From: Heterodontus francisci
Lineage: Eukaryota
Length of the DNA stretch: 32,567 nucleotides
Direction: 5' to 3'
NCBI RefSeq assembly: GCF_036365525.1
Contig: NW_027141915.1
Span: 1-32,567 of the forward strand
A program made the position numbers and the translations under genes. Below are positions 327 to 27,527 of the stretch, one piece after another. Positions within the stretch are counted from its first letter, which is position 1; each line of letters starts with the position of its first letter. The notes beneath the pieces are model-generated. The model worked only from the letters and a program-made list of their open reading frames with translations, was not told where the DNA came from and searched no databases.

Positions 327-752
327 GGCTGGAGACCATTTTCTTAGAAAACATACGGCTCAGGAGTTATCTATTAAAGGGCTTTAAAATTAAGAAGGGG
401 TTTGATAGGAGAGGCAAAGAGAAGATTTTTCCACTTGTTGGCATACTAAAGCTAGGGGTCATCAATATAAGATAATCACTAATAAATCCAGTATAGAATT
501 CAGGAGAAACCCCTTTACCCAGAGACTGGTGAGAATGTGGAACTTGCTGCCACAGGGAATAGTTGATCTGAATAGCACAGATGCATTTAAGGGGAAGCTA
601 GATAAATACATGATGGAGAAAAGAACAGATAGATATACAGAGAGGGTGAGATGGAATGGAATGAGATGAGATGCATGTCAGATTGAACACAGGCATAGAT
701 GAGTTGGCCCGAATGGCCTGTTTATGTACTGCACATTCGATGCAATTCTATG
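327..752 (+). mobile_element. Degenerate CR1-clade LINE 3' fragment (present in each cassette copy: ~4266-4684, ~8046-8455, ~11762-12188, ~14190-14580)
   Basis: Residual ORF2 C-terminal motifs (copy at 8121: RDHQYKI...FITQRVVRMWNLL...LKGKLDK) and a CR1-type 3' tail (ggccgaatggcctg...ttctatg). Boundaries approximate. Confidence 0.75.
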
Positions 753-920
753 GAAAATGTGATTGGTATGGGAAATATTAACATCTGTGAGTCATATTTT
801 AAAGGCAGAGGTAAATATTCTGAAACATAACTCAAAGTACAGACGGTTCTTTAATAAACAACAGGTGATGAAATGCCTGGGAATGGCTGACTGGGAAAGG
901 TTTTAGTATATCAGGCAGAT

Positions 921-971
921 TGAACCTGGCCAAATAAGCTGATCTTTGGATCAGGCTCCAGGTTATACCCA
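921..971 (+). pseudogene. TRAJ: TRAJ pseudogene B1
   Basis: Nonamer GGTTTTAGT 899-907 but only a 6-bp spacer and heptamer GGCAGAT. A +1 insertion gives an in-frame TAA, and 7 nt are deleted after FGS relative to B4. Donor GTAAGT at 972. Confidence 0.85.
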
Positions 972-1219
972 GTAAGTGAGATGTTTAGGGATTTCAGTTC
1001 TATATGTTGGAACAGTAAAGAAAAGCATGTCATCAAATTAATTGAAGAATGGATCAAATTAAGTTTCACATAACTTGGTCCACACTGAGGTGAATACCTA
1101 ATTTGGAAATGATCTACTTCCAACACCGTGAGGGGATGTTCTTAATGTGAATTAGGAATGTGTCAGAGAGATGAATCATTGTTAAGGAAAGGATTTTTGT
1201 TGAGGACTGTAATGGTGTG

Positions 1220-1279
1220 TGAGTGCTGACTCCTTCAAGGTGATATTTGGAGCTGGGACTGAGCTCAAAGTTCAACCCA
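1220..1279 (+). CDS. TRAJ: TCR alpha J segment C1 (SADSFKVIFGAGTELKVQP)
   Basis: Nonamer GATTTTTGT 1192-1200, 12-bp spacer, heptamer TGGTGTG 1213-1219, FGAG, donor GTAAGT at 1280. Confidence 0.9.
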
Positions 1280-2540
1280 GTAAGTGATTTTACATCTCCA
1301 TGTTCTTCCTTTTCTCTCCAATAGACTATCTGCTCCATAAATCACATTAAATCACTTCTTTAGTCTTAACACCTAGAATTATTCAACTTCAAAATAAAAT
1401 GATATTTATCACAATTGATGCTGACATTTGTGAAACATCTAACACGAATTTGAACTCATCTGTGACTCTCCAAACAATATAGGATGTTCGTTGTTACTGA
1501 GATAAAGACTGTAATGCTTTACACGGTTCTGCATGATAAGTCTGCTGATGAGCTTAATTGCATTACAACCATTTGCATTGCTCTTAATTTTCCATTAAGT
1601 GCTTTGTGTGGCCCTCGCAAAACCTGCATAAAATGTACATGGAGTTGGAATTGGTATCTATTTCTGCTGTCTTGTGCTGTGTAGTGATACTGAGCAGTTT
1701 TAATTAACTAATAATCATGGACTTATAGCAATGACGTGTGTCTAATTTTCATTTAAAAAGTTGCCAACAATATTTTACCTAGTGTTATAATGATAAGGAC
1801 GATATTGTAAGGCGATTATAAGGAAAGTGACCTCATCAAATAGACTTAAATATATTGCATTAGTTCAGCGAGTGAGTTGCATTTCCACTTTATTTCGAAT
1901 TAGATTTGATCAGATACTACTCATAGTTATTGGTTCAAACATGTAATGAATAATTGTAATTGTTTATTTATTTGCTGTTGTTATCAAATTCCAAATGATA
2001 TTTATAATTCTACTTCAGTTATATTAAAGATACCAATGCTGGATATTAGCTGGAACATAATTACTACCCATTGAGGTTAACTACAGGATAATAAAGAAAT
2101 ACGATGTCAATAGAACGGCCTAAGGTTTCATTAATGAAAGAACTGACTGAAATTGGGAAGGAAAAGTGTCAGAAAACATAACTGGGTTCAATTGTTAACA
2201 CCCCATCCTGTTTGTTAGGAAATTGTGAGACTTATGAAATATATAATCCAGGATGATAATTGAGGAAAGCAGCGAGAGAGTTCAGAATTACTGGGGAAGC
2301 ATTCAGAGGGACTGATATATAAATCAAAGCATTAGCTTTTTACTGGAAAGCTAGTTATGTTTGACTGATAAACAGAATAATTAACAATAGATGCCTAATT
2401 AATGCTAATGGACATGTAAATTGGTTTTACAAATAGTATTACAATTTGGCACTCAACGCTTTGAAGTATTCAAAGAAAGTTGCCCGAATGACCAAAAAAA
2501 ATGACTACAGGGAGTTTTTGCTAAAGGATGTAGGGCTGTG

Positions 2541-2603
2541 TGAACACTGGATTTGGCAATAATTTAATCTTTGGAAAAGGGACCAAGTTAACTGTGGAGC
2601 CAA
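2541..2603 (+). CDS. TRAJ: TCR alpha J segment D1 (NTGFGNNLIFGKGTKLTVEP)
   Basis: Nonamer AGTTTTTGC 2513-2521, 12-bp spacer, heptamer GGCTGTG 2534-2540, FGKG, donor GTAGGT at 2604. Confidence 0.93.
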
Positions 2604-2734
2604 GTAGGTATTCATTAAGAACTATAGACTATCTATCTGCCTACACACGTGTATGTTCTCTGTCCCACCTACAATGATCCAAGTATTTTTTTCTATATTT
2701 CAACATTTCTGAATATGGTAACTTTTCATTTTGG

Positions 2735-2940
2735 AGTATGGACCTTGATGGATAGTTGAGGCAAGTAGTGTGTATGGATTTAAGTGGAAGCTGGATAATT
2801 ACAGCAGGGAGAAAGGAATAGACGAATATCCTGACAGGATTAGATACAGAGGGTGGGAGGACACTGATGTGGAGCAGAAACGTTCGAATAGACCAATTGG
2901 ACAAAACAGCCTGTTTCTCTGGTGTAAATTCTTTGTAATG
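2735..2940 (+). mobile_element. Short CR1-like 3' fragment downstream of J-D (also ~6668-6878, ~10428-10625, ~12830-13030)
   Basis: tttaagXggaagctggataa (FKGKLD) and a tail like the other CR1 fragments; same position in four cassette copies. Boundaries approximate. Confidence 0.6.
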
Positions 2941-3269
2941 TAATATTATTATAATCTTTAAATTAATTCAATAATATTAAGCAAATATAATTGCCAAGGG
3001 GGCTTTTCTAGATATGCACTGATGCCTCTATATATTTACGTATTGATGTGCTTCTTTGTGCATTACAAGAAGCATTTTGATTATTCCTGTATGTACATAG
3101 AGATTGAAAGAGAGATAGAGGGAACAATAAGATAGATAGCTGATAGATGAAAATATATATGTAAAGTGAACAAACAAAATAGGTGTCTGTTACTTTAAAT
3201 TGTAGCAGTAAGATAGACAAAGAATAACAATTAACTTTGAAGGTTTTTGTTAGGCAGTGTAGGACTGTG

Positions 3270-3329
3270 TGAACCTTGGGAGCAACAAGCTTATTTTTGG
3301 AAGTGGGACTAGACTAATCGTGGAACCCA
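3270..3329 (+). CDS. TRAJ: TCR alpha J segment E1 (NLGSNKLIFGSGTRLIVEP)
   Basis: Consensus nonamer GGTTTTTGT 3242-3250, 12-bp spacer, heptamer GACTGTG 3263-3269, donor GTAAGT at 3330. Confidence 0.95.
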
Positions 3330-3536
3330 GTAAGTGCTGTATTATAAAATAATAATGTCACAAATCTGATCGAAAGAAATTAAAGAATTACATGAATAAT
3401 CCAGAAAATAGAACAATTAGATTGCTCACTTAATTCAGGTCATTGAAATGACAATGGGGGGAAATCAGTGGTAATAGTAGTGGTACATGGGGAACCGGCA
3501 CTATCCTGAGTTCTTGTAAAGGGATTAGTTACTGTG

Positions 3537-3599
3537 TGGATTCTACAGGATATGGTGCAATGGTATTTGGAGGAGGCACCAAACTCATTGTTAATCCTG
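3537..3599 (+). CDS. TRAJ: TCR alpha J segment F1 (DSTGYGAMVFGGGTKLIVNP)
   Basis: Nonamer AGTTCTTGT 3509-3517, 12-bp spacer, heptamer TACTGTG 3530-3536, donor GTAAGA at 3600. Confidence 0.93.
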
Positions 3600-3942
3600 G
3601 TAAGAACTCAATTATAGTTCCTCAAATTGACCATGCAACTTAGTTTACAAACAGGTTACGAATTGTGGGTGAAATAATGTACAGATTGTCAATGGACATC
3701 AAGCAGATCCAGACAAAGTTAAACTCTAGTTGAACATTCTGTAATAGTTAGTATAAATATGTGTCACTGATTGAAATTACATTGATTTGAATGAGACGGG
3801 AAATATGCAATATTCAGCACATGTTAAAAATCTAAATTGGAATATTGATGACCTATAAATAGAATATGCAGTTCATTTTGTGGATAAACTATATAATAGG
3901 TATCAGGTAAAAGGGTTTCTGCACTGGCTTGTTAATGCTGTG

Positions 3943-3999
3943 TGAATAATGTCGGTAAGCTAACATTTGGATCTGGGACCAAACTAATTGTGGAACCTA
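3943..3999 (+). CDS. TRAJ: TCR alpha J segment A2 (NNVGKLTFGSGTKLIVEP), 13-bp RSS spacer
   Basis: Nonamer GGTTTCTGC 3914-3922, 13-bp spacer, heptamer TGCTGTG 3936-3942, donor GTAAGT at 4000. Confidence 0.88.
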
Positions 4000-4121
4000 G
4001 TAAGTGATGTTTAAACCCGTACTTTTTATGATATTAGTGAAAACATTGTTTTATTAATAAGCATTGTTAGTTATTCGCAATTAAAGTTAAATAATAACTA
4101 TCAAGAAATATTAAGTAAGCT

Positions 4122-4147
4122 GGGGACCAAACTAATTGTGGAACCTA
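4122..4147 (+). pseudogene. Orphan 3' half of J-A2 (GTKLIVEP plus splice donor) from a local ~150-bp tandem duplication; no RSS
   Basis: gggaccaaactaattgtggaaccta|gtaagtga is identical to 3975-4007, and the following ~130 bp is also repeated. Confidence 0.85.
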
Positions 4148-4842
4148 GTAAGTGAAGCTTAATCCTGTATTTTTTATGATATTATTAGTGAAAACATTGT
4201 TCTGGTCATAAGTATTGTTAATTATTCACAACTGAAGTTAAATAATAACTATCAAGAAATACTAAGCTGGCTGGGGACCATTTCCCTAGAAAACAAACGG
4301 CTGAGGGGTTAACTATTAGAGCTCTTTAACATGAAGTAGGGGTTTGGATAGGAGAGACAAAGGGAAGATTTTTCCACTTGTTGGCATCATCAATGTACGA
4401 TAATCACTAATAAATCCAAAATAGAATTCCGGAGACACTTTTTTTTTTACCCAGAGACTGGTGAGAATATGGAACTTGCTACCACAGGGCGTAGTTGATT
4501 TTAAAAGCATAGGGGCTTTAAAGGGAAGATAGGTAAATAGACGATGGAGAAAGGAACAAATGGATACGCAGAGAGGATGAGATGATACAGGATGAGAGGA
4601 GGCTCATGTGTAACATGAGTACAAGCATAGATGAGTTGGGCCAAATGGCCTGTTTCTGTGCTGCAATTTCAATGCAATTCTATGTAAAACTTAATTGGTA
4701 TTGGAGATATTAACAATTTCTGAGTCATGAATTTAAAGGCTTAGGTAAATGTCCCAAAACATAACTCAAAATACAGACTTTTTTTTAAAATAAACAACAG
4801 GTGATGTAATGTCTGAGAAAGGTTTTAGTATATCAGGCAGAT

Positions 4843-4893
4843 TGAACCTGGCTAAATAAGCTGATTTTTGGATCAGGCTACAGGTTATACCCA
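4843..4893 (+). pseudogene. TRAJ: TRAJ pseudogene B2
   Basis: Same lesions as B1: nonamer 4821-4829, 6-bp spacer, GGCAGAT heptamer, in-frame stop, 7-nt deletion. Donor GTGAGT at 4894. Confidence 0.85.
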
Positions 4894-5142
4894 GTGAGTG
4901 AGATGTTCAGGGATTTCAGTTCTGTATGTTAGAACAGTAAAGAAAAGCATGTCATCAAATTAATTAAAATATGGATCAAATTAAGTTTCACGTAACTTGG
5001 TCCACACTGATCTGAATACCTAATTTGGAAATGATTCTACTTCAAGCACGGTGAGGGGATGTTCTTAATGTGAATTAGGAATGTGTCAGGAAGATGAATC
5101 ATTATTAAGGAAAGGATTTTTGTTGAGGGGTGTAATGATGAG

Positions 5143-5202
5143 TGACTGCTAACTCCTTCAAGGTGATATTTGGAGCTGGGACTAAGCTCAAAGTGCAACC
5201 CA
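5143..5202 (+). pseudogene. TRAJ: TRAJ C2 (TANSFKVIFGAGTKLKVQP): open frame, RSS heptamer defective
   Basis: Nonamer GATTTTTGT 5115-5123, 12-bp spacer, heptamer TGATGAG 5136-5142 (essential GTG changed to GAG), donor GTAAGT at 5203. Confidence 0.8.
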
Positions 5203-6466
5203 GTAAGTTATTTTCATCTCCAAGTTCTTTTTTTTCTTTCTTTAGTCTTCACCACCTACAATTATTCAACTTCATATTATTGGATGTTTAGCACATTGGA
5301 GTTGACATTCTTGAAACATCCAACACCAATTTGGACCCATCTGTGACTCTCCAAAGAATATAGGGTGTTAGTCAGTACTGAGATAAAGACTTTCAGACAG
5401 TACGCGTTTCTGCATGATACATTGCTGATGGGCTTAATTGCATTACAACCATTGTCATTGTTCTTAATTTTCCATTAAATGCTCTTTTATGGCCCTTGAA
5501 AATTCTGTATAAAACGTACATGGAATTGGAATTAATACATACTTCTGCTTTCTTCTACTGTGTAGAGATAGTGAACAATTTTAATTAAATGGTGATCTTA
5601 GACTTTTAGCAAAGGTGTGTGCCTAGTTTTCATTAAAAAGTTGTCAACAATATTTTACCTAGTGTTATAATGACCAGGAAAACATTATAAGGTGATTGAT
5701 CTATCTGAAAATGACTTCATCAAATGGTCTCAGCGTTACTGCTTTAGTTCAGAGAGCGAATTGCATGTCCATCTTATTTCGGATTAGGTTTAATCAGTTA
5801 TCACTCTTAGTTATTGGATAACAAATGTGTCAATGCATAATTGTTTATTGACATTTAGGTGCATGTTTTTTTTTCAAATTCCAAATGTTATCTATAACTC
5901 TACCTCAATTATATTAATGACACAAATGCTGGTAATAATCTGGTACATAATTACCAGCCATTGAGGTTAACTATAGGATAATCAAGAAATACGATTCCAA
6001 TAGAACAACCTAAGGTTTCATTAATGAAAGAACTGACTGAAATTGGGAGATTAAAGTGTCATAAATCGTAACCTGGTTCAGTTATTAACAGCCCATTCTG
6101 TTTGTTAGGAAGTTCTGAGATGTATTCACATACTGTGCATTAAGTATATAATCCAGGATGATAATTCAGGAAAGCATTGAGAAAGTGTAGCGCTTTCAGA
6201 ATTACTGGGGAACATTCAGAGGGATTGATATATAAATCGAAGCCTTAGCTTTTTTCTGGAAAGTTAGTTATGCTTGATTGATGAACAGAATGATTGAAAA
6301 TAGATATGCCTAATTAATGTCAATGGACACGTGAAAATGATTTGCACAGATAGTGTCACTATTATGGCATTGGATGATGCCAAGCATTCAAATATAGTTG
6401 CCAGAATGAGCAAAAACGAGTACAGTAAATCTGAAGGGAGTTTTTGCTAAAGGATGCAATGCTGTG

Positions 6467-6529
6467 TGAACACTGGAGCTGGCTCTAAGCTCATCTTTGG
6501 AAAAGGGACAAAGTTAACTGTGGAGCCAA
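6467..6529 (+). CDS. TRAJ: TCR alpha J segment D2 (NTGAGSKLIFGKGTKLTVEP)
   Basis: Nonamer AGTTTTTGC 6439-6447, 12-bp spacer, heptamer TGCTGTG 6460-6466, donor GTAGGT at 6530. Confidence 0.93.
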
Positions 6530-7202
6530 GTAGGTATTCATTAATAACTATAGACCATCTATAGACTTGCATACGTGTGTGTGTTCTCTGTACTGCCAGC
6601 AATCAATCCAATATATCTTCTCTATATCTTCAACATTTCTGAATATTGTAACATTTCATTTTGGAGTCTGTAACTTGCTACGAAATGGAGCTTTTAGGCA
6701 AGTAGCATGTGTGGATTTAAGGGGAAGCTGGATAATTACTACAGCGAGAAAGGAATTGAAGAATATCTTGATAGGATTAAATAAAGTGGGCGGGAGGAAG
6801 CTCCTATGGAGCAGAAATGTTAGAATAGGCCAATTGGACGGAGCAGTCTGTTAATGTGGTGTAAATTCTTTGTCATGTAATATTATTATAATGTTTAAAT
6901 AAATTCAATAATACTAAACAAATATAATTGCTAAGGGGTGGCTTTTGTTGATGTGCACTGTTGCCTCCATATATTTATGTGTCGATGTGCTTGTCATGCA
7001 GTACAAAGCTTTTCATTATTCCTACATGTAAATAGAGAGTGAGAGATAGACAGAACAATAAAATAGATAGCTGATGCATAGGTGGAAAAATGTATATAAA
7101 GTGAACAAGCAAAATAATGCTGTTACCTTGAATTTCAACAATATGATAGACAATTAATAACAAGTAAATCAGAAGGTTTTTGTTAGGCAGTGTAGGGCTG
7201 TG

Positions 7203-7262
7203 TGAATACTGCAGACAGAAAGCTTATTTTTGGAAGTGGGACCAGACTAATCGTGGAACCCA
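7203..7262 (+). CDS. TRAJ: TCR alpha J segment E2 (NTADRKLIFGSGTRLIVEP)
   Basis: Nonamer GGTTTTTGT 7175-7183, 12-bp spacer, heptamer GGCTGTG 7196-7202, donor GTAAGT at 7263. Confidence 0.95.
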
Positions 7263-7476
7263 GTAAGTGTTAGGAAAGGAAATTGTCATAAATCAGATTG
7301 AAAGAAACTAAGGAATTGTCATGAATAATCTAGAAAGTAAAACAATTAGATTGCTTAGTTATTTCAAGTCAATGAAACGCCAGTGAGAATATATCAGTAG
7401 TGATTGCAGCGGTACATAGGGAACCAGCACATGTCATAGGGAATCCTAAGTTCTTGTCAAGGGATCAGTTACTGTG

Positions 7477-7539
7477 TGGATCCTGCAGGATATGGTAATA
7501 TGGTATTTGGAGGAGGCACCAAACTCATTGTTAATCCTG
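7477..7539 (+). CDS. TRAJ: TCR alpha J segment F2 (DPAGYGNMVFGGGTKLIVNP)
   Basis: Nonamer AGTTCTTGT 7449-7457, 12-bp spacer, heptamer TACTGTG 7470-7476, donor GTAAGA at 7540. Confidence 0.93.
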
Positions 7540-7864
7540 GTAAGAACTCAAAATTACCATGCACATTATTTTATGAACAAATTACAAATGGTGGTCAAAA
7601 TAATGTGCAGATTGTCAATGGACACCAAGCAGATCCAGACAAAATTAAACTCTAGTTGAACATTGTGTAATAGTTAGTATAAATGTGATTCACTGATTGA
7701 AATTACATTGATTTGAATGAAATGGGGAATATGCAATATTCAGCATTTGTTAAAAATCTAAATTACAATATTGATCCATAAATATCATATACAGTTCATT
7801 TCGTGGATAGTCTATATAATAGGCAACAGGTAAAGGGGTTTCTGCACTGGTCTGTCATGCTGTG

Positions 7865-7921
7865 TGAATAATATCAACAAGCTAACATTTGGATCTGGGA
7901 CCAAACTAACTGTGGAACCTA
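7865..7921 (+). CDS. TRAJ: TCR alpha J segment A3 (NNINKLTFGSGTKLTVEP)
   Basis: Nonamer GGTTTCTGC 7837-7845, 12-bp spacer, heptamer TGCTGTG 7858-7864, donor GTAAGT at 7922. Confidence 0.93.
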
Positions 7922-8624
7922 GTAAGTGAAGTTTAATTCTGTATTTTTTATTATGATATTATTAGTGGAAAAATTGCTTTGTTAATGAGTATCATCGGTT
8001 GTTTGCAATTAAAGTTAAATAATAACTATCAAGAAATACTAAACAGGCTGGGGACCATTTCCCTAGAAAATACATGGCTAAGGGGTCAACTATTACAGGT
8101 CTTTAACATTAAGAAGGGGTTTGAATAGGAAAGACTTTTCCACTTGTCGGCAGACTAAAACTAGGGATCATCAATATAAGATCATAACTAATAAATCCAA
8201 TGTAGAATTCCAGAGAAACTTTATTACCCAGAGAGTTGTGAGAATGTGGAATTTGCTGTCACATGGAGTAGTTGATGTAAATAGCATAGATGCTCTTAAG
8301 GGGAAGCTAGATAAATAGATGGAGAATGGAACAGATGAATGTGCAGAGAGGGTGAGATGAAGTAGAATGAGATGAGGCTCATGTGGAATACGAACACGGG
8401 CACAGATGCGTTGGGCCAAACGGCCTCTTTCTGTGCTGAACATTCAATGCGATTTTAGTTGGTGTGGGCGATGTTAACAGTTTCTGAGTCATAAATTTAA
8501 AGGCTTGGATAAACATTCCAAAACACAACGCAAAATGTGTATTGTTCTTTAATAAACAACAGGTGATGTAATGTCTGGGAATGGCAGGCTGGGAAAGGGT
8601 TTTGTGTTAGCCTATCAGGCAGTC

Positions 8625-8681
8625 TAAACCATGCTAATAAACTGATTTTTGGATTAGGGACCAGGCTCCACTTTATACCCA
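8625..8681 (+). pseudogene. TRAJ: TRAJ B3 (NHANKLIFGLGTRLHFIP): open frame, defective heptamer
   Basis: Nonamer GGGTTTTGT 8597-8605, 12-bp spacer, heptamer GGCAGTC 8618-8624 (no GTG), donor GTGAGA at 8682. Confidence 0.8.
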
Positions 8682-8918
8682 GTGAGATATTAAAGGATTT
8701 CAGTTCTATGTATTAGAACAGAAAAGCATGTCATCAAATTCTTTGAAATATTGATCCAATTAACTTTTACATAATTTGGCCCTCCCCGCTGTGATATGAA
8801 ATTTTGGAAATGGCCTACTTCAAGCACGGTGAGGGGATTCTTAATGTGAATTAGGAATGTGTCAGGGTGATGAATCATTGTTAAGGAAAGGATTTTTGTT
8901 GAGGGGTGTAATGGTGTG

Positions 8919-8978
8919 TGAGTGCTGACTCCTTCAAGGTGATATTTGGAGCTGGGACTGAGCTCCAAGTTCACCCCA
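8919..8978 (+). CDS. TRAJ: TCR alpha J segment C3 (SADSFKVIFGAGTELQVHP)
   Basis: Nonamer GATTTTTGT 8891-8899, 12-bp spacer, heptamer TGGTGTG 8912-8918, donor GTAAGT at 8979. Confidence 0.9.
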
Positions 8979-10235
8979 GTAAGTTGTTTTATATCTCCCT
9001 GTTCCTTTTTTTCCCAATAGTAGACTATCTGTCAAATAAATCACATTAAATCTCCTTTAGTCTTATAATTATTCAACTTCAAAATAAACTGATATATATC
9101 ACAATTGAGCTTGACATTCTTGAAACATCCAACAATAATTTGGACCCATCTGTGACTCTCCAAAGAATACAGGGTGTTAGTACTGGGATAAAACTTTTCA
9201 GACTTTACACAATTCTGGACGATAAGTATTTAATTGTACATAATTGCATTATAAACATTTTCATCCCTCTTAATGTTCCATCAAAAGCTTTTCTGTGCTC
9301 CTCGCAAAATCTGCATTAGTTGAACATTGAGTTGGAACTAATATGTACTTCTGCTGTCTTGTGCTGTGCAGTAATAGCGAGCCATTTTAACTAAATGTGA
9401 TCATAGACTTTTCGCAATGGCATGTGCGTAATTTTCATTTAAAAGTTTTCAACAATAGTGTAATAATATTCAGGAAGACATTATAAAGCCCCTCAGAAAG
9501 TAACCTCATCAAATGGTCTCAACATTATTGCGCTAGATCAGAGATTGAGTTGCATATCCATCTTATTTTAGAATAGGTTTGATCAGATATTACTCTCATT
9601 TATTTGTTTAAAAAGTATGTCAATGCATAACAGTTTATTGTTAGCATTACTTAGTTGCATGATGTTCCTTTTATCACATTCCAAATGTTATCCAAAATTC
9701 TACCTCAGTTATATTAAGGAGACTGATGCTGGTAATAATCTGGAACATAATTACCATAATAAGGATAACTACAGGATAATAAAGAAACACAATTCCAATA
9801 GAACAACCTAAGGTCTCATTAATGAAAGAACTGACTGAAATTGGGAGAGAAAAGTGTCAGGAATCATAACTGGGTTCAACAGACCATCCTGTTTGTCAGG
9901 AAATTATGAAGTGTACCCACACACTACATATGAAATATACAATCCAAGATGATAATTCAGGAAAGCACTGAGAGAGTGTGGCACTTTCTGAAATACTGGG
10001 GAAGCATTCGGAGGGTCAGATATATAAATTGAAGCCTTAGCTTTGTACTGGAAAATTTAGTAATGCTTCAGTGAAAATCATAATAATTAAAATAGGTGTG
10101 CCTAATTAATGTCAATAGACATGTAAAAACGATTTGTACAGATAGTGTCATGAATATGGCATTGTCAGAATGAGCAAAATAAAAACGACTGCAGTAAATC
10201 TGAAGACAGTTTTTGCTAAAGGATGCAATGCTGTG

Positions 10236-10292
10236 TGAATGCTGGAGTTGGCTATATCTTTGGAAAAGGGACAACGTTAATTGTGGAGCCAA
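10236..10292 (+). CDS. TRAJ: TCR alpha J segment D3 (NAGVGYIFGKGTTLIVEP), 6 nt shorter than its paralogs but in frame
   Basis: Nonamer AGTTTTTGC 10208-10216, 12-bp spacer, heptamer TGCTGTG 10229-10235, donor GTAAGT at 10293. Confidence 0.9.
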
Positions 10293-10906
10293 GTAAGTAT
10301 TCATTAATAACTATAGACTATCTATTGACTTACGCACATGTGTATGTTCTCTGTACTGCCAACAATTAATCAAATAATTTTGCTGTCTGTTCAATGTTCC
10401 TGCATATTGTAAGAGTTTGTTTTGGAGTCTGTAACTTGCGACCACATGAAGCTCCAAAAGTGAGAAGCATGTATGGATTTAAGTGGAAGCTGGATAAGTA
10501 CAGCAAGGTGAAAGGGATAGAACAATACCCTGATAAGATTGGATAAAGAGGGTGGGAGGAAGCTGATGTGGAGCAGAAATGTTGGAATAGGCCAGTTGGA
10601 TAGAATCGCCTGTTTCTTTGTAATGTATTATTATAATAAAATCAGTTCATGGATATTGAGCAAATATAATTGCCAAGGGCTGTCTGTTGTTGATATGCAC
10701 TGATGCCTCTATATATTTATGCATCTATGTGCCTGTCTATGAAACATCAATTTACTATTCCTATATGTTGGTAGAGAAATAGATGAAAACATATATTTAA
10801 AGTGAACAGGTAAAATTTGTGCCTCTCTACTTTAAATTACAAGATTAAGATAGATGTAGAATAATAATTACCTCAGAAGGTTTTTGTTAGGCAGTGTAGG
10901 GCTGTG

Positions 10907-10966
10907 TGAATGTTGGGAGCTACAAGCTTATTTTTGGAAGTGGGACCAGACTAATCGTGGAACCCA
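10907..10966 (+). CDS. TRAJ: TCR alpha J segment E3 (NVGSYKLIFGSGTRLIVEP)
   Basis: Nonamer GGTTTTTGT 10879-10887, 12-bp spacer, heptamer GGCTGTG 10900-10906, donor GTAAGT at 10967. Confidence 0.95.
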
Positions 10967-11174
10967 GTAAGTGTTGTCTTAAGGGAGAACAATGTCACAA
11001 ATCTGATTTAAAGAAATTAAAGAATTGTCATGAATAATCTAGAAAATAGAACAATTAGTTTGCTTACTGAATTCAAGTCATTGAAACGCCAATGAGATTA
11101 ATTCAGTAGTGACTACAGTGGTACATAGGGAACAATTACTATCCTGAGTTCTTGTCAAGGGATCAGTTACTGTG

Positions 11175-11237
11175 TGGAATCTGCAGGCTATGCTAAAATG
11201 GTATTTGGAGGAGGCACCAGACTCAATGTTAAGCCTG
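11175..11237 (+). CDS. TRAJ: TCR alpha J segment F3 (ESAGYAKMVFGGGTRLNVKP)
   Basis: Nonamer AGTTCTTGT 11147-11155, 12-bp spacer, heptamer TACTGTG 11168-11174, donor GTAAGA at 11238. Confidence 0.93.
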
Positions 11238-11579
11238 GTAAGAACTCAATAATCATTCTTCAAAATGACCATGCAGATTAGTTTACAAACAAATAATGAA
11301 TTCTGGTCAAAATAATGTACAGATAGTCAATGGACACCAAGCAGAGGTAGATCAAATTAATCTCTAGTTTTACATTGAGTAATAGTTAGTATTAAAGTGT
11401 AAGGCTGATTGAAATTGCATTGATTTGAATGAGATGGGAAATATGCAATATTCGTCACTTGTTAACAATCTAAATTGGAATATTGACAATCCAAAAATAT
11501 AATATACAGTTCATTTCACAGATACTCTATATAATAGGTATCAGATAAATGGGTTTCTGCACTGGTATGTAATGCTGTG

Positions 11580-11636
11580 TGAATAATGCCAATAAGCTAA
11601 CATTTGGATCTGGGGCCAAATTAATTGTGGAACCTA
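11580..11636 (+). CDS. TRAJ: TCR alpha J segment A4 (NNANKLTFGSGAKLIVEP)
   Basis: Nonamer GGTTTCTGC 11552-11560, 12-bp spacer, heptamer TGCTGTG 11573-11579, donor GTAAGT at 11637. Confidence 0.92.
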
Positions 11637-12358
11637 GTAAGTGAAGTCTAATTCTTTATTTTTTTTTATTATGATGATGTAAGCCGAAATATTGTTTTGT
11701 TAATAAGTATTGTTAGTTATTTATAATTAACGTTAAATAATAACTATCAAGAAATACTAAGCAGGCTAGGAACCATTTCTCTAGAAAACACACAGCAGAG
11801 GGATCAGCTATTAGAGGTCTTTAACATTAAGAAGGGGTTTGATAGGGGAGACAAAGCAATTTTTTTCCACTTGTTGGGAAATTTAAACTAAGAGTCGTCA
11901 ATATAAGATAATCAGTAATAAATCCAATGTGGAATTCAGGAGAAACTTCCTTGCCCAGAGAGTGGTGAGAATGTGGAACGTGCTACCACAGGAAATAGTT
12001 GATGTGAACAACATAACTGCATTTAAGGTGAAGCAGGATAAATGCACGGTGGAGAAAGGAACAGATGGATATGCAGAAAGAGTGAGATGATGTAGGATGA
12101 GATGAGGCTCATGTGTGACATGAGTACAGACATAGATGAATTGGGCTGAATGACCTGTTTCTGGGCTACAAATTTGATGCAATTCTGTTTAAAGTCTAAT
12201 TGGTATTGGAAATATTAACAGTTTCTGAGTCATAAATCTAAAGGCTCAGGTAAACATTCCAAAACATAACTGAAAATATGGATGGTTCTTTAAGAAACAA
12301 CAGGTGAAGTAATGTCTGGGAATGGCTGGCTGGTTTCGTGTCAGCCTATCAGGCTGTT

Positions 12359-12415
12359 TGAACCTTGCTGTGAAGCTGATCTTTGGATCAGGGACCAGAC
12401 TCCAGGTTATACCCA
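12359..12415 (+). pseudogene. TRAJ: TRAJ B4 (NLAVKLIFGSGTRLQVIP): open frame, weak RSS, GC donor
   Basis: Nonamer TGGTTTCGT 12331-12339, 12-bp spacer, heptamer GGCTGTT 12352-12358, non-canonical donor GCAAGT at 12416. Confidence 0.8.
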
Positions 12416-12624
12416 GCAAGTGTGATGTTTAAGGATATCTGTTTTCTATGTTAGAACAGAAAACTCAAGGATTGCCTAATAAATGACAATGTTGTTCTAA
12501 AAATGGTTTGTGTCACTATTATGGCATCGGAAGATGTCAAGGGTTCAAATATAGGTGCCGGAATGAGCAAACAATTACTGCAGTTAATATGAAGGGAGCT
12601 TTTGCTAAAGGATGCAATGCTGTG

Positions 12625-12687
12625 TGAATTTTGGAATTGGCAATGAGCTTATCTTTGGAAAAGGAACAAAGTTAATTGTGGAGCCAA
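12625..12687 (+). CDS. TRAJ: TCR alpha J segment D4 (NFGIGNELIFGKGTKLIVEP)
   Basis: Nonamer AGCTTTTGC 12597-12605, 12-bp spacer, heptamer TGCTGTG 12618-12624, donor GTAGGT at 12688. Confidence 0.9.
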
Positions 12688-13357
12688 GTAGGTATTCATT
12701 AATAACTATAGACTATCTGTCGATTGACACACGTGTATGTTCTCTGTACGGCCAACAATGAATCAAATAATTTCTCCATATGTTCAATTAATCCTGAATT
12801 TTCTGACATTTATGCTGCTTCATTTTGGAGTGTGGAACTTGATACGGCATGGATAGTTGCGGTTAGGAACATGTATGGATTTAAGGGGAAGCTGGATAAG
12901 TACAGCAGGGGGAAAGGAATTGAAGAATATCCTGGTAGGATTAAATAAAGAGCCTGGGAAGAAGTTCCTGTGGAGCAAAAATGCTGGAATAGACCAGTTG
13001 GACAGAACAGCCTGTTTCTGTGGTGTATTTTTTTCCTAATGCTAGAACATTATTTTAATGTTAAAATTATTTCATGAACATTAAACAAATATAATTACCA
13101 GGGGGTGGATTTGGTTGATTATGCACTGTTGCTACTACATATTTATGTATGTATGCCTGTCTATGTAATACATGAAGCATTAAGTCATTACTCCTATTTG
13201 TACACAGATGGATTGATAGATGTAGAGTGAGAGATAGATAGGTGGATAAAAACATATATGTAAACAGACAAAATGTGTGGCTATTACTTTCAATTGCAGC
13301 AGTAAAACAGACAAATAACTAATCCAGAAGGTTGTTGTTAGGCAGTGTCGGGCTGTG

Positions 13358-13417
13358 TGAGGGATGGGAGCTACAAGTTTATTTTTGGAGGTGGGACCAG
13401 ACTAATCGTGGTACCCA
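13358..13417 (+). CDS. TRAJ: TCR alpha J segment E4 (RDGSYKFIFGGGTRLIVVP)
   Basis: Nonamer GGTTGTTGT 13330-13338, 12-bp spacer, heptamer GGCTGTG 13351-13357, donor GTAAGT at 13418. Confidence 0.92.
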
Positions 13418-13625
13418 GTAAGTGTAGTCCTATGAAAGAATAATGTCACGAATCTGACTAAAAGAAATTAAAGAATTTTAATGAATAATCTAGTGAAGAT
13501 AACAATTAGATTGCTGAGTTATTTCAAGTCATTGAAATGACAATGAGAATAAATCAGTGATGATAGTAATGGTACATCGGGAACCAGCACTCTCCTGAGT
13601 TCTTGTGAAGGGATCAGTTACTGTG

Positions 13626-13688
13626 TGGCTTCTGGAGGATATGATAAAATGGTATTTGGAGGAGGCACCAAACTCATTGTTAATCCTG
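13626..13688 (+). CDS. TRAJ: TCR alpha J segment F4 (ASGGYDKMVFGGGTKLIVNP)
   Basis: Nonamer AGTTCTTGT 13598-13606, 12-bp spacer, heptamer TACTGTG 13619-13625, donor GTAAGA at 13689. Confidence 0.93.
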
Positions 13689-14008
13689 GTAAGAACTCAA
13701 TTATAATTCCTCAAAATGACCACGTCAATTAGTTTACAAGAAAATTATGAATTCTGGTCAAGATAATGTACAGATTGTCAATGGATACCACGTAGAAATA
13801 GACAAAACTAAACTATAATTTTACATTGTGTAATTGTAGTGTTATTGTGTGAGGATGAACCTAAATTGATTTGAATGACATGGGAAACATGACACTTGTT
13901 AATAGTTGAACTTGTAATATTGATAATCCACAAATGTAGCATGCAGTTCATCTCATCAATAGCTTATACACTTGGCATCAGGTATCTGCAGTAACATGTA
14001 ATGCTGTG

Positions 14009-14065
14009 TGAGTCGTATCAATCAGCTAATATTTGGATCTGGGACCAAACTAATGGTGCAACCTA
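14009..14065 (+). CDS. TRAJ: TCR alpha J segment A5 (SRINQLIFGSGTKLMVQP), divergent A-family member
   Basis: Nonamer GGTATCTGC 13981-13989, 12-bp spacer, heptamer TGCTGTG 14002-14008, donor GTAAGC at 14066. Confidence 0.88.
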
Positions 14066-14630
14066 GTAAGCGAATTCTAATTCCGTGTAGTTTTTAAATT
14101 CCGTGCATGATAGTCAGAATGTTGTTTCATTATTAAGTATCACCAACTAATTACAATTAACAGTAATTAAATCTATCAGGAAAGACCGAACTGTCTGGAC
14201 CATTTTTCTCTGGAACAAAAGAGAAGGCTGATTGATAACTTATGGTTGAAATTACAGAAGGGTTTTTCCATTTGTGAATGAGTCTAAAACTAGGGCCCAA
14301 TTATGTAAGATAGTCACTAATGAATCCAACAAAGAATTCAGGAGAAACCTCTTTACCCGGAGAGTAGTTAGAATGAGGAACGTGGTGCCACATGGTGTAG
14401 TTGAGATGCATTTGAAGGAAATCGAGATATGTATGTGAAGCTGAAAGTAATAGAAGTATATGCAGAGAGGGTTAGATGAAATAGGGTGGATGGAGGCTCG
14501 TGAGGAGAATTAATGCCAGCATAGACTAGTTGGGTTGAAAATGGCCTGTTTCTGTGCTGGAAATGCTATTCAATTCTACGTAAAAAAAACTTTTGAATAT
14601 ATTGCTTGTATACCCATTATATATGTTAAG

Positions 14631-17970: not shown

Positions 17971-18802
17971 ATATTTATGCGTGTAAGGGAGGACGATCAC
18001 AAAGTGTCTGATAATATAAGTACTTGCAAAGCAATGCCTGAGAGTAACTGTTTAATCAATATTAGATGTCACGGTATAAACTCTCCAATATTAAATTGAT
18101 TCCTGCTAACTAAGATTGGCATTGGGCACACTAAAAATACAAGCTTTGTACATGAACTGTTCACACATTTGTTTCAGTAGCTATTAGGTATAATCCAGTG
18201 GAGATAGACTGCAAAATCCCACCGAGGCAACCAGGAACTCAACAGGGCAAGAAACAAAATGAGGTTAGATTAACTTGTACATACAATAAATTTCTACGAT
18301 TTGGGATAATGCAGTGGGACCGCGCTGGGGAAAATTATAAAATAAATGAGAAAGGTGGGTCAGAGACAATATTGGGTAAGATTTTGACCCATTCAATTCA
18401 AAACCCTTCCACTTAAACCAAGTTAACATTATGCCGGTTAACGTTTCTCAGACTGATCAATACACTTATGGTAGGAAATGTGATACTCTGTGGACGATGA
18501 GAAGAAAGCGCCATCTAAAATTTAGTTAAGGTAGCACATAGCAGTAAAAGCTAACTTAAATAATTTACAATGTGACAAGTGTATTTAGTCTGATCAGAAT
18601 TAGTGCAGTGAGATTAATCAAAGTACATGGATGGAAATAAAATGCATTGCCTTTTTATTGTGACAGAACAGTTAGCACCAATTAATATGAAGTACTCGAT
18701 AGAACTAATGAAAGAAAATTATGTCAATGGGGATGAATTATAGGTCAATGAAAGGGTCACAAAATGAACATGGGGCTTATTGTGGGAGAGTGTATTACTG
18801 TG

Positions 18803-18865
18803 TGAATCAAGGAATGAACAGTAAACTAAACTTTGGAGCAGGGACTAGATTAACTGTACAACCAT
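18803..18865 (+). CDS. TRAJ: TCR alpha J segment (NQGMNSKLNFGAGTRLTVQP)
   Basis: Nonamer GCTTATTGT 18775-18783, 12-bp spacer, heptamer TACTGTG 18796-18802, donor GTAAGT at 18866. Confidence 0.92.
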
Positions 18866-19550
18866 GTAAGTATCTTACAAAACATAATGAAACTTTTAAC
18901 CCAACCTGCCACTGTGTAATCAATTAGAAACATTCAAATGTATTTGAACAAATTTAGTGCATTGTCTAGTTAGAGCCCAAGGCGGATATACTTTACCGTG
19001 TATAAACTGTGCAGTAATAAATGCAAAGCTTATAGGGAGAGGATAAATTTAGGACTGTATTATTTTTCAAAGGGCCAGTGTTGAGATAGATAACACATGG
19101 AAGTAATCTTGGATGATAGAATAGGTTAGATTAGATAAGAAAGATTTTCAAAATTTGGTGACATGCAAATATTTAATGACTGCATTAAAAAAACAGCTGG
19201 ATGCAATTTTACACACTACTCTATAGCAATGTTGCAAGCATCAATAGAATAAGCAACACTTATAAATAATTGCTTACTTCAATATTTACTGCTTGGTTAA
19301 TGAGTTGCATTAAATGGTACAGTCTATGATTACACTGCAACTGAGAGAGAGGAGGAGAAAATACAACAAAAGACAGCCAGCAAGGGAGAGAGTAGAAAAA
19401 TACAGGGATCATAAATACCGGGTGAAGCACAGAAGAAAATGTGAGGTGGACTAAAATTAAACAGAAAGCTATAAAAATTAATTCCAATCAGCACTCTCTT
19501 CCCATACAGTGTAACGTTGTTACTTTCCCTTACATTGGTATTCTTGTGGA

Positions 19551-19586
19551 TTGTCCTGATGAGTGCAAGATGAAAAGCTTCGACAA
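19551..19586 (+). ncRNA. Minimal type I hammerhead ribozyme within a Penelope-like element remnant (~19516-19606)
   Basis: UUGUC-CUGAUGA-GUgcaagAU-GAAA-agcu-UC/GACAA: stem I UUGUC pairs with GACAA, the core is complete, and stem III is the palindrome AAGCUU. Confidence 0.75.
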
Positions 19587-19893
19587 CATGACTCTATTTT
19601 CAGCAATGCACAATTTTCTTTCGATAGTATTTTTTTTAATCTGGCACACTTCCTGTAAAGAGAACGTTCAATAAGAATTCAAGATGTTTCAATAACTCAT
19701 CATCATGGCCTTTGGGTTTATAACTAAGGATTTAGATGGTTGGTTGTGTGACAAAAACTTGGTTAAAGCAGGATAGACTGAAGACAGAATCTTGCATTGA
19801 AGGGGTCATTGTGGGAACTAGTTTGCACAGAAGAGGAGGCAGACATTGTGCATTGGTCAATAGGTACTTTTTGTACGAGAATAAGGCACTGTG

Positions 19894-19956
19894 TGAAATA
19901 TGGAGGCAACAATAAGATAACATTTGGAAGCGGGACCAAGCTAATTGTAGAACCCA
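19894..19956 (+). CDS. TRAJ: TCR alpha J segment (KYGGNNKITFGSGTKLIVEP)
   Basis: Nonamer ACTTTTTGT 19866-19874, 12-bp spacer, consensus heptamer CACTGTG 19887-19893, donor GTAAGT at 19957. Confidence 0.95.
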
Positions 19957-20081
19957 GTAAGTGCTGAAGCTTTTTATCATGTTTTCCATCTTTCAGTAAA
20001 AATAAAACATTTGATTAATTGTAAATGTGATCTTAAAACAAACATGAAAATGCCATGGTTTATAATTTCCATCATCAATGG

Positions 20082-20752
20082 CAGGGGTCTGCAACCTGGG
20101 ACATGTCACTCTTTAACATCTTCTTTGCGGCTCCCAATCTAATCCAGTTGGATTGCATTAACATGAAAAAAATCCTTTAAAAATTGTCAAGAAAGGTAAG
20201 AGCAGTGCTTTATTGTAGGGATAATTATGCTGCACTTTGCGTTTCAAATGATTATTTTAATGGAAAAACATTGTTGTGCTTTAAATAAACCTGTTCGGGC
20301 TACACCTGATGGTTATAGAGAATGCCTTTGGTTCAGGAACAGGTTTTAAGGATGCGACCATAGTATAGCCAAGGCAATAAATTATTCTGCATGTGCTATT
20401 AGAAGCTACCTTTTTATCATGAGAAAAAATTGCCTTCAATCTACACATCTTAAGTTCAAGTTTGTTTTAAAGATGACAATCTTGACAAAATTATAGTAAA
20501 AAAAAATCAAAGAATGCAATAATTCAATTACATCCATTTGTAATTGATTTGTTTCTATTGATACATAAATTTAAAACATACATTTTTCTCATTATATTTG
20601 CCAATTAGGCATCCTACCAGAAAAACTTAGTAATTTATCAAGCATTTAGTTTAGAAATGCTGAAATTTTGTCTTGTGGCTCCCAAAAGTTTTTATTTTGG
20701 GCAATATTTTTAAAAAGCCGCTTCAAGTAAAAAAAAAGGTTGCAGACCCCTG
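20082..20752. mobile_element. Non-autonomous hAT (Charlie-like) DNA transposon / MITE, 671 bp
   Basis: Perfect 16-bp TIRs CAGGGGTCTGCAACCT (20082-20097) and AGGTTGCAGACCCCTG (20737-20752), with subterminal TGYGGCTCCC motifs. The expected 8-bp TSD is degenerate (ATCAATGG vs GTCTATCA). Confidence 0.8.
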
Positions 20753-21107
20753 GTCTATCATTAAATGCAAAATATGTGATAAAATTCTCATTAGGCAGCT
20801 CACTAAAATCATTCGCCTTCTCAGAATTAATTTTTGCATCTTTGATGGATCTTTGCTAATAAAATAGGATATCCCCCAAATTTTAACTGAAAGGTAGATA
20901 GAGATAAGCACAGATAAGTATTGTAAAATGCCAAATAATGTTACCATTTAAAATATTTAGCAGCTGATCATGTATTTTGCCAGTCGTACTTCTGAAAGCA
21001 GAAGCATCAACATTATAATATTTAATAGCATTCACCAATGCATCCTGTAAAATGTAACTCACAATTGGGCATGCCACATAGTTTTTGTGTGGCTATATTA
21101 TGCTGTG

Positions 21108-21164
21108 TGAATAATAACTACAAACAAACATTTGGACCAGGAACCAGAGTGACCATAACACCGA
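21108..21164 (+). CDS. TRAJ: Most C-proximal intact TCR alpha J segment (NNNYKQTFGPGTRVTITP)
   Basis: Nonamer AGTTTTTGT 21080-21088, 12-bp spacer, heptamer TGCTGTG 21101-21107, donor GTAAGT at 21165. Confidence 0.95.
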
Positions 21165-22161
21165 GTAAGTTAACCTTTCTCTCCATTGAAACAACTGATA
21201 TATTACTCCTGCATGACTTAACTAGCAAACAATGGGCAAAACTGCATAGACAAATAGAAATATTGTAGAAATATAAACGTAAAATAATAGACTGTGTGTG
21301 GGGAAATCAAGTCCAACAAAAATGCAATTCACAGATTTAATATCCTATTATTAAAAATAGGAAAAAAATAGCTCATGGAAATTAATGGCAAATCCCATGC
21401 TGGGTAGTTTGTGGGTTTATGTACTGGGAAGACAAGAGCTTTGCAAATTTGGCAATTAACAAACATTCTAGTTGAAGCCAGGATTAAGTTGAATCTTCCA
21501 ATATTTTTCCATACTGTTATGTTTTGCGCACTAGTGTGTCATTGACGTATATATGTGCAAGTGGTTCTGTAAGCAACCTCCATAAGGGGTATTTCCAAAG
21601 GGAAGGGGATAATGGATTAAAAATGAAAACTGGTATTGGGGAAGTGGGAAGAGGTTGATACTGTACGGACAATTATTGCAGGGAGACAGTATTGATGCCA
21701 AATGCCTACCCTTTACACTGTAAAATTCTATTGAGTCTTTGGCAGACACATGAGACAAGTTAGTAACTTGTCATCCAATGTCATTGTTCTGGAAGCAAAT
21801 CCATGTATTTGACAAAGTATCAATTCATTGGACACTTATTCACATAGGACAGATGTTTTCAAGCAGCTGGCACTGGGCTTTATTGAAATGAACATCAGAT
21901 GCCTATCAGCCAGAGTTTGGAAATAGAAACATGCTAACAGGGCAGACAATTAGTGACATTATTGTAGTTAACAGTGAAATAAACATGAATCGATTTTGTG
22001 TCACTAAGCGAACTGTTATATTCATGGTAATCATCCAATAACACACATTGAGTGCTGTGTTATTATGTAGCTTAAGGGCACAGTGAAGGTGAATATTGCT
22101 GTGCAGTTATTTTGAACCTTCAGTAAGAAAATGAAATGCATCAAATATGACAATTAGAATA

Positions 22162-22318
22162 TGAGAATTGCTGAAAATAGAGACCTGTTGTTGAAGTGGT
22201 AAGAGTTGTTGTTTTCCCTTACATTGGTTATTCTCGCGGATTGTCCTGATGAGTGCAAGGCCAAAAACTTCGACAACATGTCTCTATTTTCAGAAATTCT
22301 CAAGTTCTGTACTACCAA
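22162..22318 (+). mobile_element. Penelope-like element terminal fragment with inverted 5' piece, mutated hammerhead (22241-22276) and 15-bp flanking direct repeat
   Basis: ATGACAATTAGAATA occurs at 22147-22161 and 22319-22333. 22163-22197 is the reverse complement of 22267-22301. The body is homologous to 19516-19606. Confidence 0.75.
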
Positions 22319-22843
22319 ATGACAATTAGAATAATAAAAAACTTTAAAAATGCAAAAATAAGATTAACAATTCAGCTGAATATTGAGCACATAAAAATAT
22401 CTCAAGGAGCCCTTCTCTTTCAAAACACAAGCATTCTCCAAAAGGAGTATGTAGAATTTATTATACACTTCCTGCGTTAGTGTCCAGTAGTAACAGAGCA
22501 GCTGCATTAAAACGTTAAGGTGCACAACACCAACTTTACTGTAAATGACATGCCTGTAATAGATTCAACTCTATTTGAAAGAATAAGCTAGCAAGCTTAC
22601 AATAGTTTCTTCATGGAGACCAGTTGATGGGTAAATAGTAACCTTGAAGGAATATTTGCTTGAATAAAGATGGAAACAAATAGAAATTGTATTGCCAAAC
22701 AGGGGCATCATTTGTATTTATAAGTCAGAAGTGACTCTGGATGGAGTAACATTTGCAATAACGGTCTGCCATAGTTTTACAAGGACATAACAGTTGAAAA
22801 TGAGGATTTGCAAGGAGATGTATATGCTGCAGGTATGCTGATG

Positions 22844-26757: not shown

Positions 26758-27039
26758 ATCGGAAAGATATTGCAAAACCATCCGTCTATATCCTCCCTCC
26801 GCGGGATCGGCCCGAGGTTTCACCCGTGTGCTTGGTGACAGACTTTTTCCCAAACAACATCACTGTGACGGTTAAAGACGGGAATGACAGAGCGAGCCGA
26901 ACGGAAAACGACACCTCGCTGTCCATCCCCGATCGCAGCTACAGTGTGGTCGGATTCCTGACAAAGTCTGGCTCCGAGTGGAAGGAAAAATTTCAGTGTA
27001 CTGCGACGGGTGAACAAACGAAAGCGTATCCAGATTCTG
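26758..27039 (+). CDS. TRAC: TCR alpha constant region exon 1 (Ig C domain)
   Basis: Polypyrimidine tract and CAG acceptor at 26757; phase 1 matches all J donors. Protein KPSVYILPP...VCLVTDFFP...YSVVGF...FQC lacks the C-strand Trp, as is typical of C-alpha. Donor GTATGT at 27040. Confidence 0.95.
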
Positions 27040-27130
27040 GTATGTTCTTTGATTTTTTTATTCATTGAGATTATAAGTGGAAATCATTATTGCTAGTGTT
27101 GTAAATATTATTATTATTGATCTTCCTCAG

Positions 27131-27178
27131 GTGATTCCCAGGCAGTTTGTATTGAGCGTGAAGAGGAGGAGGAAGTCG
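27131..27178 (+). CDS. TRAC: TRAC exon 2 (hinge with interchain Cys: GDSQAVCIEREEEEEV)
   Basis: Acceptor tcttcctcag, 48 nt preserving phase 1, a single Cys, donor GTGAGT at 27179. Confidence 0.9.
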
Positions 27179-27420
27179 GTGAGTACAATGTGTATTTTTA
27201 TGCCTGTGTCTGTTGTAAACACATTGTAAACACAAAAAAGGCCTTCGTTTCTGAAGGAATCGTTTTCAAAACAGCAATTTTGCAGATAGCGTTCGCCTGA
27301 TTTATCGTTCCCTGTTATTGGTTAAGATAGCAGAGCATGCAAAAACATTTATTATTGTAAAACAGTTCATTGTCTTCGATAGGCTCCTTATTTCCTGTGT
27401 TTTTCTTTCCCTTCTCACAG

Positions 27421-27527
27421 ATGCACACGTGAATATGCTTTCACTGACAGTCCTTGGCTTCAGACTTCTCTTCTTTAAAAGTATCGTATTCAACGCCTTG
27501 ATGACTATCCGTGTTTGGATCTCATAA
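27421..27527 (+). CDS. TRAC: TRAC exon 3 (connecting peptide, transmembrane and tail: DAHVNMLSLTVLGFRLLFFKSIVFNALMTIRVWIS*)
   Basis: Acceptor cttctcacag. The TM has the R-xxxx-K pair and the FNxLMTxRxWxS ending characteristic of TCR alpha. TAA at 27525-27527, then G and donor GTGAGA at 27529. Confidence 0.95.

Follow-up and report, generated by a model that had tools for sequence, protein, structure and literature searches.

The 32,567-nt stretch of Heterodontus francisci DNA analyzed here (hereafter the window) contains a genuine minimal type I hammerhead motif, 36 nt long and on the sense strand, within the J-C region of a TCR alpha-type locus (Table 1). The motif is not specific to this locus; it is carried by one copy (copy 1) of a very abundant repeat, and we consider it highly probable that copy 1 is a Penelope-type pseudo-LTR relic of ordinary origin, which is probably inert. 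An earlier note on this DNA had described the motif as an intact ribozyme whose self-cleavage could affect pre-mRNA or germline transcripts depending on J position, with an inert relic as its fallback. The fallback is the reading that our results support, while J-position-dependent control of TCR alpha pre-mRNA was left unsupported by the high copy number of the repeat, the lack of any excess preservation of the motif, and the dead core of the partner available in cis.

Table 1. Coordinates of the hammerhead motif, the two repeat copies, and the surrounding locus in the window.
Feature	Position	Strand	Details
Hammerhead motif, copy 1	19551-19586	+	5-bp stem I, complete core, 2-bp stem II, palindromic stem III
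Stem I	19551-19555/19582-19586	+	5 Watson-Crick pairs
Core CUGAUGA	19556-19562	+	
Stem II	19563-19564/19570-19571	+	G19563·U19571 and U19564-A19570; 5-nt loop
Position 11.1	19571	+	U in copy 1; C in 368/731 X9 reads and in 49.5% of X1 depth
GAAA	19572-19575	+	
Palindrome AAGCUU	19575-19580	+	
C17 and predicted scissile bond	19581; 19581/19582	+	
Copy 1, 5'-truncated fragment of high-copy repeat (probable Penelope-type pseudo-LTR piece)	19484-19607	+	Read and contig break points, depth
CCAAT-like box	19484-19491	+	From sequence; putative promoter element
TATA-like box of the family	19510-19515	+	Two positions altered in copy 1
Copy 2 of the repeat, intron between last J and C	22205-22318	+	Hammerhead at 22241-22276
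15-nt direct repeat, left (target-site-duplication-like)	22147-22161	+	Repeat comparison
15-nt direct repeat, right	22319-22333	+	Partly like the family's own tail
Inverted piece of the family 3' end	22156-22197	-	Pairs with 22267-22308 (42 nt, 88%)
Nearest upstream J (heptamer to donor)	18796-18866	+	
First J downstream of motif (heptamer to donor)	19887-19957	+	
Constant-region exons (C1-set domain, hinge, transmembrane) of TCR alpha-type chain	26759-27527	+	Pfam, translation, splice sites

The motif agreed base for base with its earlier description, in which the sequence and coordinates of stem I, core, stem II, and palindrome and the predicted cut after C19581 were all correct. All strictly conserved bases of the hammerhead core were present in copy 1 (C3, U4, G5, A6, N7, G8, A9, G12, A13, A14, the pair A15.1-U16.1, and H17), and stem III could be formed only in a dimer. 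The structural-motif search that had been proposed bore the motif out: a descriptor combining the core, a stem II of at least 2 bp, GAAA, the palindrome, UH, and stem I matched once in the whole window, both strands included. The same descriptor was matched in dinucleotide shuffles in 1 of 600 cases with a stem I of at least 5 bp and in 5 of 600 with at least 4 bp, figures that are optimistic because the descriptor was composed after the motif was known. The loose core pattern alone stood at chance level (2 seen, 5.94 expected). The proposed search with hammerhead models failed to recover the motif, with no hammerhead family match in Rfam, either at the gathering score for the whole window or at E values up to 10 for 19300-22500; the Rfam hammerhead models probably fit minimal variants poorly. 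Scans of metagenome, genome, and viral contigs with the motif pattern gave 0 matches. A looser pattern retrieved six metagenome loci, which were rejected as chance, as stem I or the palindrome was present in none of them.

Among 35 matches to the FGxG pattern of J segments, 29 were retained; 27 of them precede and 2 follow the motif, which lies 715 nt beyond the donor of the nearest upstream J. The sense orientation and these counts match the earlier description, with 27 being a minimum because the window begins within the J array, and with two or three probable pseudo-J included. Six matches (5778, 8803, 12630, 17614, 20327, and 26643) were dropped because the donor or the signal sequence was not a proper one. 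In Pfam, the constant exon at 26759 matched the C1-set domain (E = 1e-8), and PF09291 gave 0.0055, under its cut-off. It is followed by a hinge exon and then by a transmembrane exon with Arg and Lys, a pattern which we take to mark alpha and delta chains, and the large number of J segments fits alpha (PMC5931798). Protein searches with the constant exon found no relatives, and only generic immunoglobulin-type constant domains stood among the best 60 of 4,717 matches to this exon in the PDB.

The J array itself showed several further features. From 1 to 14400 it consists of about four tandem cassettes of 3.6 to 3.9 kb, 73 to 81% alike and with the same J order, and one J position per cassette looks degraded (915-975, 4837-4897, 8618-8682, and 12352-12416). 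The J segments at 945 and 4867 have an in-frame stop upstream and a poor signal sequence, the one at 8648 has a poor heptamer, and the one at 12382 has the donor GC instead of GT. The J at 3966 has its 3' half partially duplicated at 4103-4152, where the donor is kept and the FG codons and a signal sequence are missing. Between the last two J segments, 20082-20752 is occupied by a multi-copy element of about 670 nt with a 16-nt perfect inverted repeat at its ends and a depth of 370 to 2,100 (compared to 10), probably a non-autonomous DNA transposon.

The extent and abundance of the repeat were read from sequencing runs. Four of 13 runs, all 13 from one organism, were aligned to 18700-22500 at 80% likeness; X1 consists of contigs, perhaps from the window's own sample, X9 of raw reads from another sample, while X5 to X8 are RNA by guess only, with X6 from the same sample as X5. 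Reads and contigs of other copies diverged from the window before 19484 and after 19607, delimiting copy 1 as a fragment of about 124 nt, and its likeness to copy 2 extends to 19616. In the bin 19462-19588, X1 contig depth reached 213,500, compared to 10 to 13 in neighboring unique bins (about 20,000 times), which, as contig depth does not equal copy number, is safely taken to mean a copy number in the thousands to tens of thousands. X9 had a mean depth of 517 in the copy 1 bin and 0 in 18 of the 30 bins. Besides the CCAAT-like box of copy 1, a further one was found in the family's upstream loose-end consensus, before 19484, and the two altered positions of the TATA-like box carried A in 94% (19511) and 80% (19515) of X9 reads; the repeats of Penelope-like elements (PLEs) are described as typically carrying promoters. 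A target-site duplication was sought around copy 1 and none was found.

A second copy of the repeat, whose hammerhead the earlier note had overlooked, lies 2,690 nt downstream and is 86% identical to copy 1 over 78 nt. In this copy 2, G12 of the core has changed to C (22262) and the palindrome is broken (22267), so that a base required in the catalytic core is missing. As a nearby copy of such identity has a dead core, members of this family evidently decay here. Copy 2 is contained in a 157-nt stretch between two 15-nt direct repeats, which are likely, if not certain, to be a target-site duplication; the boundary of the insertion is blurred because the right repeat partly resembles the family tail. 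Loose ends of the family were found after 22319, 22323, and 22327, i.e., at variable 3' ends, and the inverted piece is predicted to form a 42-bp hairpin (-49.7 kcal/mol, z = -7.2). Copy 2 thus displays 5' truncation, an inverted piece, and a short variable tail, and PLEs have been described as 5'-truncated, inverted, and with a tail of 30 to 40 bp (10.1101/2021.04.23.441226). From this anatomy we infer a Penelope origin, and protein searches with the copy 2 reading revealed no RT or GIY-YIG endonuclease ORF tied to the repeat family. The only matches to a 40-residue reading of copy 2 were two repeat-rich proteins, neither with an RT or endonuclease domain, and these were rejected.

Three further observations concern copy 2. 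The whole insertion (22147-22333) is present in every J-C transcript. The 3' half of copy 1, too, has an antisense counterpart in its inverted arm (-40 kcal/mol). A short reading frame at 22249-22329 starts with an ATG within the copy 2 hammerhead core and continues through the tail, somewhat like the ORF reported for the anole element, which begins at stem II; protein searches with this frame found no relative.

Copy 1 differed from other family reads at least at 19502, 19511, 19515, 19522, 19547, 19571, and 19591, seven positions found among the 40 difference rows listed, with 115 further rows beyond these. At the five non-CpG positions, the alternative letter was present in 80 to 94% of X9 reads; at the two CpG positions, C was present in 62% (19547) and 50% (19571). 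This pattern is consistent with methylation-driven decay, and the U at 19571 probably stems from a CpG transition. Alternatively, the half of the reads without C could belong to a subfamily that has this trait, and the shares at 19571 are biased by the preferential placement of T-bearing reads on copy 1. The change turns the closing pair of stem II from G-C to G·U, which the folding model penalizes by 2.2 kcal/mol. Of the earlier term "intact", the complete core and palindrome therefore stand, while the term as a whole was too strong, given a U at 11.1, a position with C in roughly 50% of the family reads. We had taken U11.1 as disabling, and dropped this view because natural motifs in Fig. 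S3 of PMC4209133 have G·U; it is now regarded only as weakening. By our own count, 8 of the 56 representative motifs in that figure have G·U at 10.1-11.1, all with a helix II of at least 6 bp, unlike copy 1, whose stem II has no G-C pair left. In the runs guessed to be RNA, C at 19571 was more frequent (61% in X5 and 82% in X6, compared to 50% in DNA), which would loosely fit expression of younger copies, the shares being depth-weighted over contigs.

The differences were also compared between the motif and its surroundings. Only 1 of 36 positions differed inside the motif, compared to 6 of 88 outside (Fisher p = 0.67), a test restricted to the listed positions and with almost no power, in which the core was not seen to be better kept than the flanks. 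A 13-base core would stay unchanged by chance with a probability of 0.40 to 0.47. The retention of all strictly conserved core bases is nevertheless a point against the relic reading.

The following course of events would account for these observations. A 3'-end fragment of a Penelope-like family, or of a non-autonomous derivative, would have inserted between two J segments, comprising a pseudo-LTR with CCAAT- and TATA-like boxes, the hammerhead, and a tail of about 25 to 35 nt, and copy 1 would have been drifting ever since. In the parent element, the motif would have formed half of a double hammerhead, with two copies joining via the 6-nt palindrome and either core cleaving the UC site of the other copy. 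Copy 1, now solo, probably enters intron or germline RNA by passive transcription and would almost never fold or meet a partner before splicing, and hence would not regulate TCR alpha. Two sense copies in 32 kb need no selection, since the repeat is very abundant.

In a nearest-neighbor folding model, the hammerhead fold of the copy 1 monomer had an energy of +6.1 kcal/mol, and the pair probability of stem I fell from 0.25-0.59 in the bare 36-mer to at most 0.002 with flanks. Active folds came to +1.7 kcal/mol for copy 1 with copy 2 and -3.3 kcal/mol for the copy 1 homodimer, compared to ensembles near -13.4 kcal/mol. A homodimer with the majority letters was also disfavored (-7.7 compared to -16.3 kcal/mol for its ensemble), and these energies by themselves therefore do not tell a live copy from a dead one. 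Partners in a double hammerhead cleave one another, either core acting on the site of the other copy. A cut in cis at 19581 would thus need the core of copy 2, which is dead and cannot supply it, and the core of copy 1 could cut in cis only at 22271, which is predicted to be buried in the 42-bp hairpin.

For minimal PLE hammerheads, no activity as monomers and low activity as dimers have been reported, with most motifs being solo (PMC4209133), in line with the earlier statement that they cleave poorly as monomers and better as dimers. It could be hypothesized that weak activity persists, with copy 1 pairing in trans with another family transcript or a second TCR alpha transcript and being cut at 19581 in a few molecules, with no biological effect. 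The complete core and perfect palindrome would allow this, a dimer in trans is formally possible (-3.3 to -5.5 kcal/mol), the runs guessed to be RNA contain the family sequence in abundance, and solo salamander hammerheads with a weak helix III were reported to be 6 to 22% cleaved in 1 h (PMC7229834). However, the dimer ensemble is more stable than the active dimer by about 10 kcal/mol, no stem I is predicted to form once flanks are included, stem II is without a G-C pair, and the salamander motifs have contacts between loops 1 and 2, none of which was identified in copy 1. We consider such residual cleavage unlikely. For the anole element, insertion in vitro was reported not to require ribozyme cutting, and the site was neither the start nor the end of any RNA-seq read.

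Copy 1 very probably works like, and derives from, the minimal PLE hammerheads described by Cervera and De la Pena in 2014 (PMC4209133), and the earlier assignment to Penelope-type, dimer-type motifs was thus upheld. Shared with them are the type I topology, the CUGANGA and GAAA core, a helix I of 4 to 5 bp, a palindromic region 15.2-16.2 with loop 3, a U-rich 5' flank, and membership of a large consensus family with thousands of mostly solo genomic copies (about 4,000 minimal PLE hammerheads in coelacanth and about 9,000 in Xenopus). Helix II is 2 bp here, whereas the shortest among the 56 motifs of Fig. S3 in the same paper is 3 bp and most have 4 to 8. Copy 1 has no extra base between A9 and 10.1, as is the case for only 2 of these 56, and in place of the conserved G10.1-C11.1 pair it has G·U with no G-C pair behind it. 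Cartilaginous fish are absent from the 56 representatives (PMC4209133). The relic belongs to the class described in 2014; strict membership is weakened by the lack of the extra base, of a long helix II, and, in copy 1, of the G-C pair. Lunse, Weinberg and Breaker have reportedly described small dimer-cleaving hammerheads of Penelope-like retrotransposons (RNA Biol 14:1499, as cited in PMC6765202). Judged by title and citation, these share with copy 1 the very short stems, palindromic stem III, and dimer-type cleavage, and differ in that copy 1 has no competent tandem partner.

Animal non-LTR retrozymes (PMC7229834; 10.64898/2026.07.22.740005) likewise resemble copy 1 in their type I motif, weak palindromic helix III, non-coding repeat, and best activity as a dimer. 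They are described as tandem repeats whose helices are canonical and whose loops make contacts, whereas we observed dispersed solo fragments. Copy 1 would be a relic all the same if the family were not a PLE pseudo-LTR but a hammerhead-bearing SINE or a non-LTR retrozyme monomer; this origin would be consistent with the lack of an RT or GIY-YIG ORF tied to the family, with a report of retrozymes from a chondrichthyan genome, and with a stem II shorter than in all 56 motifs of Fig. S3 in PMC4209133. It appears quite improbable, as neither copy stands in a tandem array, an inverted 5' piece and a short tail of variable length are described as PLE hallmarks, and animal retrozymes have themselves been proposed to be PLE derivatives. 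Instead of tandem units, the window holds two copies at a distance of 2,690 nt, the intervening DNA being unrelated, and copy 1 is not a tandem retrozyme. The domesticated intronic ribozymes in RECK, the other amniote hammerheads, and the HDV-like ribozyme of CPEB3 are single-copy and active as monomers, and share with copy 1 the sense position in a host intron; the amniote intronic hammerheads are described as conserved across species (PMC6155905), in contrast to the drifting, high-copy sequence found here, which shows no sign of domestication.

The regulatory role proposed in the earlier note, i.e., an exapted ribozyme whose cleavage lowers upstream-J pre-mRNA or germline transcripts and spares the last two J segments, is compatible with the position of the motif on the sense strand, 715 nt past the nearest J donor and with exactly two J segments downstream. 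Intronic hammerheads have been domesticated in amniotes (PMC6155905), and successive J rearrangement matters in the shark thymus (PMC5931798). RNA coverage offered a faint hint in the same direction. X5 covered 29 of 30 bins, with a depth of 5 to 12 in unique DNA (X6 covered only repeats), and its sole zero-depth bin, 19335-19461, lies just upstream of the predicted cut, with a depth of 11.6 downstream and 6.7 upstream of it and of 5 to 8 further downstream; at such thin coverage a gap proves nothing. An X5 contig, 19561-20207, runs through the predicted cut, its 5' side of 21 nt being under the 31-letter bridging threshold. The gap might reflect cleavage, and thin coverage or filtering may explain it as well, so neither gap nor contig counts as evidence. 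No position at which many molecules start or stop was listed for these runs, which is no evidence either, since ends are not visible in contigs. Against regulation stand the absence of excess conservation in the motif (p = 0.67, low power), the cis partner with its dead core (G12 to C) sequestered in a hairpin, and the abundance of the repeat, which makes two sense copies in 32 kb explicable without selection. An engineered intronic hammerhead left splicing efficient in vivo, while a faster ribozyme blocked it (as cited in PMC2995048), and an element acting on 27 of 29 J segments would be a poor switch. We therefore regard exaptation as highly unlikely.

Two variants would assign a role to both copies or to the family as a whole, with a split double hammerhead of the two sense copies, or abundant family RNA cutting copy 1 in trans, acting as a tuner of TCR alpha. 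In the split version, only upstream-J transcripts would hold the intact core of copy 1 together with the intact stem I arm and UC site of copy 2, and could be cut at C22271; the inverted arm of copy 2, antisense to the 3' half of copy 1, could serve as a competing switch. We find such tuning scarcely probable; were it true, a transposon relic would tune TCR alpha J usage or receptor editing. Finally, a chance resemblance to a hammerhead, with which the missing Rfam match and the chance-level core pattern would agree, is hardly credible and already largely refuted by the single match of the full descriptor in 600 shuffles and by a core, stem I, and palindrome that are family-majority sequence.

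Our literature search found no work joining catalytic RNA with the antigen-receptor repertoire, and shark hammerheads were absent among the matches listed, as judged by titles and the beginnings of abstracts; this repeat family could already stand in the supplements of bioRxiv preprints, which may list chondrichthyan families. If TCR alpha pre-mRNA were cut according to J position, this would be the first catalytic RNA shaping an antigen-receptor repertoire, but the evidence points elsewhere. A seemingly intact hammerhead on the sense strand of an interesting gene is to be expected where repeats number thousands. As a relic, the motif matters little; it adds to the minimal hammerheads a family, probably chondrichthyan, whose stem II of 2 bp is unusually short.
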